Part shown: positions 57,129 through 64,000 of the stretch, piece by piece
Numbering within the stretch: position 1 is the first letter of the stretch
Layout of the letters: every line of letters begins with the position of its first letter
Assembly: GCF_054482525.1 (NCBI RefSeq)
Contig: NZ_CM137006.1
Length of the DNA stretch: 64,000 nucleotides
Reading direction: 5' to 3' (one strand)
Program-made: the position numbers and the translations under genes
Notes under the pieces: model-generated
What the model was told of the DNA's origin: nothing
Database searches by the model: none
Seen by the model: the letters and a program-made list of their open reading frames with translations, nothing else

Positions 57129-58910
57129 TTATTCATAGTGCATGAAGCAGGTTTCAGTCGGTGCGTCCACTGCGTTATCGGCGATATCTTCAAATTCCAT
57201 GACGTTATCCAGTTCGCTGCCCATCGAAATATTGGTCACACGCTCGAGAATAACTTCCACGACTACCGGTACCCGATATTGCGCCATTAAGGCTTTCGCC
57301 TGTTCAAAGGCTGGTGCAATATCTTCCGGTTTGAAGACCCGAATCGCTTTACAACCTAAACCTTCCGCTACTTTTACGTGGTCGACGCCGTAACCGTTCA
57401 CTTCACTGGAGTTAATATTTTCGAACGCGAGCTGTACGCAGTAATCCATATCAAACGCGCGCTGCGACTGGCGAATCAGCCCCAGATAGGCGTTATTGAC
57501 CAGTACATGGATGTACGGAATGTTGAACTGTGCGCCAACGGCCAATTCTTCAATCAGGAACTGAAAGTCGAAGTCACCGGAAATCGCCACCACTTTGCGC
57601 TCTGGATCAGCGGCACACACGCCCAGCGCCGCCGGAATGGTCCAGCCCAACGGGCCTGCCTGCCCACAGTTGATCCAGTGGCGGTCTTTAAAGACATGCA
57701 GCATTTGTGCCGCAGCGATTTGTGACAGACCAATGGTGGTGACATAACAAACATCGCGACCAAAGGCTTTGTTCATCTCTTCATACACGCGCTGCGGTTT
57801 CACCGGCACGTTGTCGAAGTGGGTTTTGCGCAGCAAAGTGCGTTTGCGCTGCTGGCAGTCGGCGACCCATTCTTTACGACACGGCAGACGACCCGCTTTT
57901 TGCATCTCCTGCGCCACTTCAACCAGCAGTGTCAGCGCCGCTTTAGCATCAGAGACAATGCCGAGATCCGGACACAGCACGCGGCCAATTTGCGTCGGCT
58001 CAATATCGATATGAACGATTTTGCGCCCTTCGGTGTATTTCTCTACCGAACCGGTATGACGGTTCGCAAAACGGTTACCGATACCAAACACCATGTCGGA
58101 CGCCAGTAGCGTTGCGTTACCGTAACGATGTGCGGTTTGCAGACCCACCATCCCGGCCATCAGTTCATGATCGTCCGGGATACAGCCCCAGCCCATCAGC
58201 GTTGGGATCACCGGAACGCTGGTCAGTTCAGCAAACTGTTGTAACAGTGCAGCTGCGTCAGCATTGATTACCCCGCCCCCGGCAACAATCACCGGACGTT
58301 CGGCCTGGATTAACATTTCTACCGCTTTTTCGATCTGCATACGGCTGGCAGCAGGTTTGTAGACCGGCAGCGGTTCGTACATGTCAGGATCAAACTCGAT
58401 TTCCGCAACCTGAACGTCGAACGGTAAATCCACCAATACCGGACCCGGACGACCAGAACGCATCAGGTGAAATGCCTGTTGCAGCACGCGAGGCACCAGC
58501 GCCGCTTCACGAACTGTAACCGCCATTTTGCTGACCGGTTTAGCAATTGCTTCAATATCTACGGCCTGAAAATCTTCTTTATGCAGACGGGCGCGCGGTG
58601 CCTGGCCGGTAATGCACAGAATAGGAATGGAATCAGCAGAAGCGGAATAGAGCGCGGTGATCATGTCCGTGCCCGCAGGACCGGAAGTCCCCAGACATAC
58701 GCCGATATTCCCTGCCGTTGCGCGGGTATAACCTTCCGCCATGTGCGAAGCACCTTCCACATGACGCGCCAGAATGTGACGAATACCGCCGTGCTTACGC
58801 ATCGCTGAGTAGAACGGATTGATTGCAGCTCCCGGAACGCCGAAGGCGGTGGTGATACCTTCTTTCTCCAGCACATACATTGCCGCGTCAACGGCTCTCA
58901 TTTTTGCCAT
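57129..58910 (-). CDS. gcl: Glyoxylate carboligase Gcl (TPP enzyme)
   Basis: 593 codons from [27 protein letters not shown]; the track ORF extends upstream to 59000. Confidence 0.93.
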
Positions 58911-58929
58911 TTTATTCCTACCTCTATTA

Positions 58930-58946
58930 ATTGGAAAAATTTTCCA
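58930..58946. promoter_or_regulatory. Candidate AllR operator in the gcl promoter region
   Basis: Palindrome ttggaaaaattttccaa; a similar palindrome lies in the allA-allS intergenic region. Confidence 0.55.
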
Positions 58947-58999
58947 ACTTTCAAATTTTGTCAAAAAAACCCGCTCCGCAGAGCGGGATGCGACAGACA

Positions 59000-59815
59000 C
59001 TATGGATGTGCTTTCAGTCCCAACGCCGTGCTGATATCGCGGGCGGTGTCTCTGACCAGCTCACCCTGACTGACAAAACGATCTTCTGTCAGTCTTGATG
59101 AAGGCCCGGAGATGGAGATAGCGGCAACAACGCTACCTACATCATCGTAAATTGCTGAAGCTATGCAATTCAGACCTACAACATGCTCTTCTTTATCTAC
59201 GGTATAGCCCAGTTCACGCGCTTGTTCCAGGTCCTTCAGCAAGGTGGGCATATCCACAAGCGTAGTTGGCGTAAACTGCTGCAAACCGGTTTGCAGAATG
59301 ATGCTCATCAACTCCTCTTCCGCCAGCGGATAAAGCAACGCCTTGCCCGCACCGGAAGCATGCAGCGGCAGACGACTGCCCAGTGGCGCACACATCCTGA
59401 CCATCGATTTACACTCTAACTGACCAATTAATACTGCTTCATTGCCGTTACGAATCGCGACATTGACCGTTTCGCCGGAAAGTAACATCAGGCGGCGCAT
59501 AAACGGCCCGGCGACGGAGAGGACATCGCGGTTATGGATGTACGCCGCACCGACATTAAAGACACCTAATCCTATATGCCACCAGCCTAACTGACTGTCC
59601 TGATAGACAAAATCCGCTGCCTGTAAAACCTTCAGCAAGCGAAAGGTCGTGGAGAGCGGCAAATCCAGATTGAGAGAAATATCGCTAACCGACGAACTCC
59701 CCCCACTTTTTTCCAGATATTGCAGAATCGCAATTCCCCGCTCTAACGCCTGTGCGCCCTTCTGTGCCACAGGCTCCGCCTGTCCTGGCCTGCCGCGCCG
59801 TCTAACTTCCGTCAT
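59000..59815 (-). CDS. allR: IclR-family repressor of allantoin/glyoxylate genes AllR
   Basis: 271-aa ORF; followed on the minus strand by a terminator hairpin (cccgctc/gagcggg plus T-run) at about 58961-58992. Confidence 0.92.
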
Positions 59816-59892
59816 ACCTACGTTAACTCCGACCTACAAGTGAGCATAAACAATGAACAATTAGTTTATCTTATGCAAGTCGGTTGCAGGCG

Positions 59893-60375
59893 TCACGCAA
59901 AACAGAGTTCCTGTTCAGGAATACTTTCAACATCACAGTTGTCACTGCCGCCGCGATCGATGGTCAGAAAATCGGTGACGCGCTGCCAGGCGAAAAGTGG
60001 GTGATGCCAGACGTTACGATGGTAATTCACTCCCTGTTCGCCGTTGGTAATAAACGCCCGCAGCGTTGACAGGTCTGGTTTGTCGTCACCTAACGCCACG
60101 ACCACCACAAACACTTCACCTTTCATCGGGATAAACGCCTGTGTACCCAGCGGATGACGTTCGAGTTCGTGAATGGTCAGCGGCAGATTCGCCGGTTGCG
60201 CGCGGTTAATGCTGATGAGCGTACGGTCTTGCTCAAGAATCTCAACCAGCGCCAAATCGTGGTAACGCTCCACCAGGCCATTGTTAATATGGAAAAAATC
60301 CCGTTGCTGCGTTTCGATTACGTCGCCATAAGCACTAAAGGCTTCCTGACTTAACGGTAATACCTGAAGTTTCAT
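59893..60375 (-). CDS. allA: Ureidoglycolate lyase AllA
   Basis: 160-aa [36 protein letters not shown]... Confidence 0.92.
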
Positions 60376-60480
60376 CTTTTTGTCCTTATAACATAATTCC
60401 GTTCAACCACCGCCGACCGGTCAGCTTGGTTTCAATAACAGGCAATCTAAAACCTTAAGAGAACAACATCAACACAAAAG

Positions 60481-60497
60481 TTGGAATATTTTTCCAA
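60481..60497. promoter_or_regulatory. Candidate AllR operator in the allA / allS divergent region
   Basis: Palindrome ttggaatatttttccaa. Confidence 0.5.
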
Positions 60498-60604
60498 AAC
60501 TAGATTTAGTCCACAAATTGAACAGGGTTATCATGTAAAAATACTGATAAATCAGAGGATAAGAAAATCACGCAACTTGCGGATTTAAAAGGGGATACCT
60601 GAAG

Positions 60605-61531
60605 ATGTTCGATCCAGAAACCTTGCGGACTTTCATTGCGGTTGCTGAAACAGGAAGTTTTTCAAAAGCGGCAGAACGATTATGTAAAACCACGGCGACG
60701 ATCAGTTATCGCATTAAACTTCTGGAAGAGAATACCGGAGTGGCGCTGTTTTTCCGCACGACTCGCAGCGTGACGTTGACAGCGGCTGGCGAGCATCTAC
60801 TTTCTCAGGCCAGAGACTGGCTGAGCTGGCTGGAAAGTATGCCCAGCGAGCTGCAACAGGTGAATGATGGCGTGGAACGCCAGGTGAATATTGTCATCAA
60901 CAACCTGCTCTACAACCCCCAGGCCGTCGCCCAGCTGCTGGCGTGGCTGAATGAACGTTACCCCTTTACCCAGTTTCACATCTCCCGACAAATCTATATG
61001 GGCGTCTGGGACTCGCTATTGTACGAAGGTTTTTCACTGGCTATCGGCGTCACGGGAACCGAGGCGCTGGCAAATACCTTTAGTCTTGATCCCTTAGGAT
61101 CGGTGCAATGGCGCTTTGTCATGGCGGCGGATCATCCGCTGGCGAACGTTGAAGAGCCGCTAACAGAAGCTCAGTTGCGTCGCTTTCCGGCGGTCAATAT
61201 TGAAGACAGCGCCCGCACCTTAACCAAACGCGTCGCCTGGCGATTGCCAGGGCAAAAAGAGATTATTGTTCCTGATATGGAAACGAAAATCGCCGCCCAT
61301 CTGGCGGGCGTTGGCATTGGTTTTTTGCCAAAATCACTTTGCCAGTCAATGATTGATAATCAACAACTGGTCAGCCGGGTAATCCCAACGATGCGCCCGC
61401 CTTCGCCATTGAGTCTGGCATGGCGCAAATTTGGCAGCGGCAAAGCGGTAGAAGATATTGTGACCTTGTTTACCCAACGCAGGCCGGAAATCAGCGGATT
61501 TTTAGAAATTTTCGGCAACCCACGCAGTTAA
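60605..61531 (+). CDS. allS: LysR-family activator AllS
   Basis: 308-aa [45 protein letters not shown]... (LysR HTH). Confidence 0.92.
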
Positions 61532-61584
61532 AAATCAAGTTTCCTTGCGCGTTGGCGCGTAAAATAGCGCGCAAGCTGATTTGA

Positions 61585-62694
<1,110 letters not shown>

Positions 62695-62754
62695 TGGGCG
62701 GTATTCTGAAACGGCGATTGTCGTGAGAACAGAATGGTTGCACCAGAATACAGA

Positions 62755-62784
62755 TATAAAAAAACCGACATGACAGTCGGTTTT
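62755..62784. terminator. Bidirectional rho-independent terminator downstream of selU
   Basis: A-run, stem ccgac / gtcgg with loop atgaca, then a T-run; a degenerate second copy lies at 63236-63261. Confidence 0.8.
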
Positions 62785-62845
62785 TTTATTTTTTCCGCCC
62801 AAGACTTGGTGGTTCCGGGCAGAAATGAAACAGTCCTCATCTAGC
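62755..62845 (-). ncRNA. Candidate small antisense RNA (putative type I antitoxin)
   Basis: Near-consensus sigma-70 promoter on the minus strand (-35 TTGAAT at 62880-62875, 17-bp spacer, -10 TATAAT at 62857-62852), predicted start about 62845, ending at the 62755-62784 terminator; contains gctagatgaggactg, complementary to cagtcctcatctagc at 63017-63031 upstream of the small ORF. Confidence 0.45.
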
Positions 62846-63105
62846 AAGTGAATTATAAGTCAGGATGCCTACATATTCAAACAGCTATGTTGGCGATACA
62901 ATCCCGACGCTAGTAGTGATACTGCCTCAAGGGATTACCGCAGTGCGGAAAAGTACTTTTAAGTCCTGGTCAGGATACAGGTGGTGCTGATTCTGGTGCT
63001 CTAATTTGGAGAGAGGCAGTCCTCATCTAGCACATGAAGAAAATCATAGTTACAGGCAACGTAAGGGTAAGCTGTGATTGTCTTTCTCCCTTAAGGGAGC
63101 AACGG

Positions 63106-63189
63106 ATGAAAACTTTTCTCGATAAAGTTCTCATCGTTCTTAAGGCGCTAATCGCGCTGCTGGAACTGATCCGTCAGTTTATTGAATAA
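63106..63189 (+). CDS. Candidate 27-aa single-helix membrane peptide (putative type I toxin, DinQ/ZorO-like)
   Basis: ATG preceded by GGGAG; MKTFLDKVLIVLKALIALLELIRQFIE is one amphipathic/hydrophobic helix; followed by hairpin aaggccgaagg/ccttcggcctt; shares ALIALLELIR with E. coli DinQ as recalled from memory. Confidence 0.5.
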   Translation: MKTFLDKVLIVLKALIALLELIRQFIE

Positions 63190-63292
63190 CTGAGGAAACG
63201 TAGCTAAGGCCGAAGGTTTACCACCTTCGGCCTTTAAAAAAACCGACATGACAGTTGGTTTCATATTTATTGCCAAAATGCACACTGTTCAT

Positions 63293-63390
63293 GCCAGATG
63301 CGGCGTAAACGCCTTATCCGGCCTACACAATCTTGCAAAATCAATATATTGCACGATCCTCGTAGGCCTGATAAGCGTAGCGCATCAGGC
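63293..63390. repeat. REP pair with central IHF-like site (RIP/BIME-type element)
   Basis: gccagatgcggcgtaaacgccttatccggcctac ... aatcaatatattg ... gtaggcctgataagcgtagcgcatcaggc; near-identical to the element at 1464-1561. Confidence 0.8.
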
Positions 63391-63406
63391 AATCTAACGC
63401 CTGTCA

Positions 63407-64000
63407 TCATCCCGCAAACTGCCTGAACAGCGCCTTACCCTTAACCAGTCGCGCACCCAGCCAGCCGCCGAAAAGCGACAGCAGCAGCGCACCGCTGCAC
63501 GGCAGCACAATCCACAATCGCCAGTCTGGCTCCCACGGGAAATCAAACACTTTCGCCTGCAACACTGCCAGCGCCGTTTCCGCACCAATTGCGGCTACCA
63601 GGCCAGAAACAAACCCAAGCATGGCGAACTCACACCACAATGTCGTGCGCAGCAGTTTTTTCCCCGCTCCGAGTGTGCGCCACACCACCAGCTCCTGATG
63701 ACGCTGACGCATTCCCACCTGCACCTGTGCCAGCAACAGCAACATACCGCAGGCGGTGACCAGCACCACCATCACTTCCAGCGCCCGACTTACCTGCTCC
63801 AGCACCTGGCCGACCTGTTTTAAAATCGCGCCAATATCTAACAGGCTAATTGTCGGGAACTGGCGGTTGAGTTGCGTCAACATGCCGTTGCCATTCTCCC
63901 AGCGGAAACTGGTAAGCCAACTCTGCGGTTGTCCGTCTAATGCCCCTTCAGGGAAAATAAAATAGAAATTAGGCCGCAGACTTTCCCAGTCCACTTTGCG
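63407..64000 (-). CDS. ybbP: ABC transporter permease YbbP (FtsX-like), C-terminal part; gene continues beyond the window end
   Basis: Open frame to the window edge; hydrophobic C-terminal segment with stop at 63407. Confidence 0.8.
   Translation of the reverse strand, partial: RKVDWESLRPNFYFIFPEGALDGQPQSWLTSFRWENGNGMLTQLNRQFPTISLLDIGAILKQVGQVLEQVSRALEVMVVLVTACGMLLLLAQVQVGMRQRHQELVVWRTLGAGKKLLRTTLWCEFAMLGFVSGLVAAIGAETALAVLQAKVFDFPWEPDWRLWIVLPCSGALLLSLFGGWLGARLVKGKALFRQFAG

Follow-up and report, generated by a model that had tools for sequence, protein, structure and literature searches.

In E. coli K-12 the interval between ybbP and selU is occupied by the rhsD element, whereas in the 64,000-nucleotide stretch of DNA analyzed here (the window) the same two genes stand close together. 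This raises the question of whether the short junction is the scar of a lost element or one of several forms in which this interval exists, and of what the DNA that it does contain may be. At 100% identity, the window corresponds to chromosomal DNA of E. coli PCN033, a porcine strain of the extraintestinal pathogenic type that belongs to serogroup O11 and phylogroup D (PMC4578781). An initial annotation, made from the sequence alone, had placed the two genes about 710 bp apart, with only a small cassette and a RIP element between them. Both statements agree with our measurements. The genes are convergent, their stop codons are separated by 712 bp (62695-63406), and this gap is made up of a 14-bp spacer, a 570-bp cassette and a remainder that includes the RIP element (Table 1). 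The longest ORF inside the gap has 51 aa, and the GC profile gives 42-46% for the cassette and 55-60% for the flanks.

In K-12 MG1655, ybbP ends at 522830 and selU at 530132, and the 7,301 bp between them hold rhsD, ybbC, ylbH', ybbD', ylbI' and ylbG, where ylbH, ybbD and ylbI are pseudogenes and ylbG is IS-related. The position of rhsD stated in the initial annotation is thus correct, and the alignment it had proposed with MG1655 and other genomes confirms that K-12 does not have the short junction (7,301 bp against 712 bp). Similarity between K-12 and the window ends within a few bases of either stop codon. No Rhs relic was found in the 64-kb window by tblastn with K-12 RhsD, YbbC and YlbG or by blastn with the 7.3-kb island, and the gap does not hold the large rhs core ORF (a YD-repeat protein of about 1,400 aa) that, with a variable C-terminal tip and a downstream immunity gene or orphan tips, marks an Rhs element.

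Presence or absence of rhsD at this place is a real strain difference that has already been published. Jackson et al. (2009, PMC2935791), who cite earlier work on the Rhs locus from the group of C. W. Hill, surveyed 20 strains and found rhs in some but not in others at the site between ybbA and ybbB that they call "position 3"; according to their inference, a duplication of position 6 gave rise to this site once the B2/D strains had split off. Their position 3 (rhsD; ybbA/ybbP to ybbB, which is selU) is the same chromosomal slot as ours, and the window represents its non-rhs state. An origin of position 3 after that split fits the absence of rhsD from PCN033, a phylogroup D strain. The occupants of the slot when rhsD is absent are not described in that study, whereas here they have been identified and counted in 5,426 genomes. 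The variability of rhsD at this site and the families to which the gap contents belong (dinQ-like and RIP) are known; what is new is the allele census, the exact empty site of the cassette, the missing LexA control and a deficit of diversity in the cassette.

Table 1. Features of the selU-ybbP gap and its borders in the window.
Feature	Position	Strand	Basis
selU/mnmH (tRNA 2-selenouridine synthase), left core-gene border	61600-62694	+	364-aa ORF; PGAP; Pfam Rhodanese
selU stop codon TGA	62692-62694	+	
Spacer TGGGCGGTATTCTG, 14 bp	62695-62708	.	alignments; present as TGGGGGATTCTG in 58-, 140- and 240-bp alleles
dinQ-like/agr cassette, 570 bp	62709-63278	.	insertion relative to 140-bp allele, between ATTCTG and TGCAC; colinear with K-12 dinQ-agrA
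Cassette ends: left, ...ATTCTG followed by AAACGGCG; right, TTGCCAAAA followed by TGCAC...			
Bidirectional terminator hairpin ending the agr-like sRNA	62756-62789		terminator scan
agr-like antisense sRNA, putative antitoxin, 89 nt	62756-62844	-	Rfam AgrB RF02891
Sigma-70-like promoter of agr-like gene: TTGAAT, 17-nt spacer, TATAAT	62852-62880	-	consensus match only
Antisense target in 5' UTR of toxin mRNA	62996-63038	+	direct repeat D2; RNA duplex energy
Shine-Dalgarno AAGGGAG of toxin ORF	63093-63099	+	
Toxin ORF, 27 aa, MKTFLDKVLIVLKALIALLELIRQFIE	63106-63189	+	NCBIfam toxin_DinQ
GC-rich hairpin after toxin ORF (AAGGCCGAAGGT / ACCTTCGGCCTT)	63206-63234	+	inverted repeat I7, 12 nt, 100% complementary
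Degenerate second copy of the agr terminator	63235-63274	+	direct repeat D1, 83% identical to 62757-62796
Rest of gap, including the RIP element	63279-63406		
RIP (BIME-1-type)	63293-63391	.	inverted repeat I4; IHF consensus; Rfam
REP	63293-63326		part of RIP
IHF consensus AATCAATATATTG (consensus pattern WATCAANNNNTTR)	63339-63351		part of RIP
Inverted REP	63362-63391		part of RIP
ybbP 3' end (putative ABC transporter permease), right core-gene border	63407->64000, leaves window	-	ORF; PGAP; Pfam FtsX

The census was carried out with junction-specific BLAST queries and coverage thresholds on 5,426 complete E. coli genomes, a clinically biased collection. A K-12-type ybbP/rhsD junction was found in 2,860 genomes, and a different island, of the ST131 type, in 574; the latter codes for an Hcp plus Tle1-like effector (667 aa) and three DUF2931 proteins. 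Gaps of all types shorter than 800 bp were found in 1,853 genomes. The cassette of the window is present in 1,325 of these, with its core intact in 1,130 and damaged in about 195, mostly by a 108-bp deletion, and some 528 have a short gap of 58, 140 or 240 bp without the cassette, holding REPs only or nearly nothing. Other states, among them IS-mediated deletions, account for about 139 genomes. At least seven allele states were detected between selU and ybbP, several of them with unrelated contents. The proposal that this junction is a variable place for accessory DNA is therefore borne out by the comparison with other E. coli genomes, in which it appears as a multi-allelic slot. It follows that rhsD lies outside the E. 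coli core genome, the slot being empty or otherwise filled in about half of the sequenced strains. The slot also offers a quantified case in which every alternative content is a conflict module, either a type I toxin-antitoxin system or one of two toxin/immunity islands of type VI secretion.

The short alleles are related to one another in a simple way. In strain ECE170 the 140-bp allele reads selU stop, TGGGGGATTCTG, TGCACGCTG, RIP element and ybbP stop, which is exactly the gap of the window minus the cassette, and the 140-bp allele is consequently the exact empty site of the cassette. According to the alignments, the 240-bp allele has one extra REP pair, and the 58-bp allele consists of the left part of that same spacer joined to the ybbP-adjacent half-hairpin of the ST131-type allele. 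In the 58-bp allele (EC9682 and UM146; L004 2024-2053) only the ybbP-proximal half of this hairpin is kept (TACCAGGTAGAAATAAACGGCTTTATCA), and the complete hairpin is found in the ST131-type allele (L007 19960-20002). These sequences suggest that the 58-bp allele is a deletion or recombination derivative that arose by loss of that island.

In the ST131 strain 2019_APHA (L007 15832-19834) the slot encodes a 667-aa protein in which Hcp is joined to a Tle1-like phospholipase domain, and the three DUF2931 genes come after it. The end of selU is altered in this allele (mnmH of 1,107 bp instead of 1,095 bp), being 12 bp longer because the island starts inside the last codons of the gene. The gene content matches Hcp-ET2, which, in the summary of Ma et al. 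(2017) given in PMC6730261, combines a fusion of Hcp and a DUF2235/Tle1 phospholipase with immunity genes of the DUF2931 type. Nothing of this type is present in the window; the Hcp-ET2-type island is an alternative occupant, and, depending on the lineage, the slot can thus contain one or the other of two unrelated type VI secretion effector modules.

The part of the gap shared by the window and the 140-bp allele contains a RIP, or BIME-1, element with the order REP, IHF site and inverted REP. Two REP palindromes in inverted orientation surround an IHF consensus, and their arms (63313-63326 and 63362-63375) are 93% complementary. The Rfam model for REP-derived ES036 scores 40.3 bits against a gathering score of 37.6, and naRNA4 remains below threshold. 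The layout, at the 3' ends of convergent genes, is that of known RIP elements, and nothing in it is unusual.

We then considered how such different contents come to lie between the same two genes. There is no tRNA gene in 58000-64000, the ORF list has no integrase-sized frame in the gap, no integrase gene is listed in the annotations of the rhsD and Hcp-ET alleles, and alignments and a repeat scan show neither duplicated bases nor a convincing terminal inverted repeat at the cassette edges. An insertion of the integrase/att type was rejected on these grounds: no tRNA gene, no suitable ORF, no target-site duplication and no att-like repeat. Different alleles are found, on the other hand, in near-identical flanks. 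Strain LD22-1, which has the cassette, differs from strains 774 and RM10042, which have rhsD, at 3 of 1,095 sites in selU and at 13 sites in 3.1 kb of left flank, with the nearest difference 4 bp from the stop codon. Similarly, the SelU accession WP_001157987.1 is identical in STEC276 (cassette) and STEC799 (rhs). The patchy distribution of carriers was judged from flank haplotypes, and divergence of the flanks peaks beside the gap, at 3.7-5%, and is 1-2% at a distance of a few kb. Unrelated contents between the same core genes, combined with shared flank haplotypes, are what a hotspot exchanged by recombination presents, and from them we infer that allele exchange proceeds through homologous recombination within selU and ybbP and not through an integrase. 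The term "insertion point" used in the initial annotation implies site-specific integration; the evidence instead favors allele swapping through recombination in the flanking core genes. Gene-flux hotspots between conserved core genes of E. coli have reportedly been described by Touchon et al. in 2009 and by Oliveira et al. in 2017. The slot resembles E. coli core-gene hotspots in its many alternative contents, in having no need of an integrase and in the raised diversity of the flanks beside it.

Taken together, these observations make it likely that the gap of PCN033 is one allele of a multi-allelic slot, composed of the 140-bp RIP-only spacer and a DinQ/AgrB-like cassette and exchanged by recombination. 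The PCN033 allele is a minimal 140-bp RIP-only spacer plus the 570-bp cassette, the K-12 allele is the 7.3-kb rhsD element, and other lineages hold the Hcp-Tle1 (Hcp-ET2-type) island, REPs only, or 58 bp. A different history, in which an ancestor of PCN033 carried rhsD here and lost it by deletion in situ, leaving the short gap as a scar, would agree with the fact that deletions do occur at this place: the 58-bp allele keeps half of the ybbP-adjacent hairpin of the Hcp-ET allele, and deletions bounded by IS1 or ISVsa5 take out not only the island but also selU and portions of the allantoin genes. Such a scar should consist of joined ends of the rhsD island, but the gap corresponds precisely to the 140-bp allele with the cassette added, and neither the gap nor the window retains a remnant of Rhs, ybbC, ylbG or the AT-rich rhsD leader. 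Furthermore, the inferred appearance of position 3 after the B2/D split (PMC2935791) does not favor an rhsD-bearing ancestor for a phylogroup D strain, and we consider loss in situ quite improbable. That the short junction is an assembly collapse or some other artefact has practically no chance of being true and is refuted by the presence of the 712-bp structure in more than 1,000 independent complete assemblies. We therefore return to the multi-allelic slot, with the corollary that PCN033 would lack rhsD since its allele lineage never held rhsD in situ.

IS-bounded deletions that begin at the junction and extend into the allantoin genes were seen in two strains. Truncated copies of ybbP and allD flank an IS1 in 2018-166, and in OkiPb01677 an ISVsa5 lies between the ybbP side and a truncated gcl; both strains lack selU and some of the allantoin cluster.

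The cassette itself is colinear with the dinQ-agrA part of the arsR-gor locus of K-12, with about 70% identity. On its minus strand, the Rfam AgrB model (RF02891) gives a full-length match of 53.6 bits against a gathering score of 40 (E=6.4e-8). A promoter-like sequence with 10 of 12 consensus matches lies 7 nt upstream of the start of this match. On the plus strand, the 27-aa peptide is recognized by the NCBIfam model NF041472 toxin_DinQ, with 38.4 and 40.9 bits against a cutoff of 30, and its core has 15 of 19 residues identical to K-12 DinQ; with the DqlB model it scores 24.5 bits, below the cutoff of 35. PGAP gives the name dinQ ("damage-inducible toxin DinQ") to a longer frame of 51 aa (63034-63189). 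A simple promoter scan of the cassette revealed no promoter for the toxin gene. The hairpin that follows the toxin ORF sits at the position of the K-12 dinQ terminator, with both arms changed relative to K-12.

The antisense relationship between the two genes can be read from a direct repeat. The core of the target, CAGTCCTCATCTAGCA, is repeated at 62831-62846 in the agr-like gene; 20 of the 22 nt of repeat D2 are identical, and the perfect core of 16 nt exceeds a threshold of at least 15 nt for complementarity between the sRNA and the 5' UTR. The predicted RNA duplex has an energy of -73.7 kcal/mol, compared with -44.4 +/- 4.2 for shuffled agr sequences, about 7 SD below these controls. The cassette thus combines a hydrophobic single-helix peptide of the DinQ family with a divergent, non-overlapping sRNA of the AgrB type located 5' of the toxin mRNA. 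This arrangement, with pairing to the 5' UTR, is that of DinQ/AgrB, and the 27-aa peptide has the motif ALIALLELIR in common with DinQ. Toxicity of the peptide and its neutralization by the sRNA have been shown for the relative DinQ (Weel-Sneve 2013, PMC3567139), dinQ-like (dql) genes have been described on chromosomes and plasmids (Kristiansen 2016, PMC5066626), and DqlB-agrB of pOXA-48 was experimentally proven in 2025 to be an addiction module (PMC12365149). By analogy with these systems, we infer that the cassette works like DinQ/AgrB. The agr-like sRNA, made constitutively, would bind the toxin mRNA by pairing in its 5' UTR and so prevent production of a 27-aa membrane toxin, with LexA control absent; the predicted toxin-antitoxin activity may help the cassette to persist in the slot.

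Other features set the cassette apart from the K-12 dinQ locus. It has a single agr gene instead of agrA and agrB, it lies between selU and ybbP and not between arsR and gor, and 62695-63406 contains no LexA operator (CTG-N10-CAG), although one is present in K-12 where the two loci align. Without this operator, the PGAP label "damage-inducible" is probably a misnomer for this cassette. In addition, a second copy of the agr terminator, without counterpart in K-12, is found downstream of the toxin gene just inside the right cassette edge, and the terminator scan places a terminator-like site within it (63240-63261). It may be a working terminator of the toxin mRNA or the vestige of a tandem agr-dql array.

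Relatives of the cassette outside Escherichia were seen in chromosomal dinQ-like loci of Serratia oryzae (L024 7572-7867) and Serratia sp. H1w (L068 2251-2513), with 75-76% identity. That the cassette is closer to them (about 76% for the S. oryzae relative) than to K-12 dinQ (about 70%) hints that the cassette lineage did not arise by recent duplication of the dinQ locus of E. coli. A scan of 100,044 species genomes with a 20-mer of the toxin ORF gave 118 matches, mostly chance occurrences in unrelated phyla. Twelve of these 118 loci had a BLAST match to the test sequences: eight in Escherichia, Serratia or Pantoea, two on unbinned contigs with K-12-type dinQ, and two that were weak gor-only matches.

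Within E. coli the cassette has a single location. Its core, at 95% identity or more, was found in 1,316 plus 9 records, and this genome-wide number of 1,325 is equal to the number of carriers at the selU-ybbP junction. A distant BLAST search of 72,556 plasmid records did not find it on any genuine plasmid, where the best real relatives have at most 72% identity over half the length. A plasmid origin was rejected, since the three matches of at least 99% were records of 1.2-4.9 Mb, chromosomes filed as plasmids.

Diversity in the cassette is also much lower than around it. Pairwise comparison of ten carriers gives a mean divergence of 0.68% in the cassette, compared with 3.51% in the last 600 bp of selU, 2.58% in the last 600 bp of ybbP and 2.72% in the RIP element, so that the cassette is 4-5 times less diverse than the flanks. 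Individual carriers whose cassettes differ by 0.2-1.4% have adjacent flanks that are 2.6-6% apart. The zone of low divergence is narrow, reaching only 8-60 bp on the selU side and 3-44 bp on the ybbP side, a tract tighter than a single simple recombination import would leave. The cassette also occupies the selU-ybbP gap of Escherichia sp. E1V33, a genome assigned to a different species, where it is 99.5% identical to that of PCN033 in spite of a selU identity of 94.9%. Canonical dinQ, adjacent to gor, and the cassette occur together in this genome (L058 3253-3817, L059 10374-10884).

Several histories could produce such a pattern. An old cassette, inherited vertically and held constant by strong purifying selection on two structured RNAs and the toxin ORF while recombination scrambled its flanks, would be in keeping with the reliance of type I toxin-antitoxin loci on extensive RNA structure and pairing, and with the conservation across genera of 5' UTR elements in this family (PMC5066626). 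The canonical dinQ-agrAB spacer (876 bp), used as a control, has the same architecture, and yet 2,013 genomes are only 90-95% identical to K-12 in it. With ordinary-to-high divergence in this control, constraint typical of the family is not favored as the cause of the low diversity. Carriers also tolerate changes that kill the toxin, about 195 of them the 108-bp deletion and WS1933D the substitutions L19P and R23L, which speaks against tight constraint on the unit as a whole, and we regard the purifying-selection account as unlikely. A small mobile element of 570 bp, site-specific for the junction of ATTCTG and TGCAC and moved in trans by a REP-associated or other transposase, would explain both why cassettes 0.2-1.4% divergent lie in flanks 2.6-6% apart, including those of Escherichia sp. 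E1V33, and why the low-divergence tract is barely wider than the cassette; a REP element does adjoin it. Such an element should, nevertheless, have left a target-site duplication or terminal inverted repeats, of which there is none and none convincing, respectively, and it encodes no transposase, has no second chromosomal site (1,325 carriers, 1,325 at the junction) and is absent from true plasmids. This makes mobility of the cassette very unlikely.

Recent spread of the cassette by recombination in the flanks is the reading we prefer on the sequence comparisons, although a low-divergence tract hardly wider than the cassette leaves one feature of it unexplained. Going further, and only tentatively, the cassette might be a young selfish allele that has recently spread across diverged E. 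coli and into another Escherichia, its toxin-antitoxin system acting as a "slot holder" against allelic replacement. Always in one slot, it would compete there with the type VI effector islands (rhsD and Hcp-ET2), and addiction-type killing would penalize cells that replace it. The low diversity of the cassette relative to its flanks thus provides a testable case of whether chromosomal toxin-antitoxin systems resist replacement.

The 108-bp deletion, equivalent to 63018-63125 of the window, lies between the imperfect repeats AGTCCTCATC and AGTTCTCATC and was sampled in GMM076 and FDAARGOS_1289. It drops the antisense target, the Shine-Dalgarno sequence and the start codon of the toxin and keeps the agr-like gene, which is left as an orphan antitoxin. 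In WS1933D the toxin ORF has the changes L19P and R23L (window positions 63161 and 63173), the agr region has a 1-bp insertion, and PGAP annotates no dinQ; judged from these substitutions, the toxin is probably inactivated.

Variable contents were also observed in the vicinity of the slot. One further variable slot, at a distance of a few kb, is the spacer between ybbJ and cueR, which holds genes for a YadA-like adhesin and lipoproteins (L006 28436-33254 and L008 28436-31071) or nothing (L007, L009 and L010). In the cueR-ybaT interval, a type I secretion system with a giant adhesin is present in L006 and L008 only.
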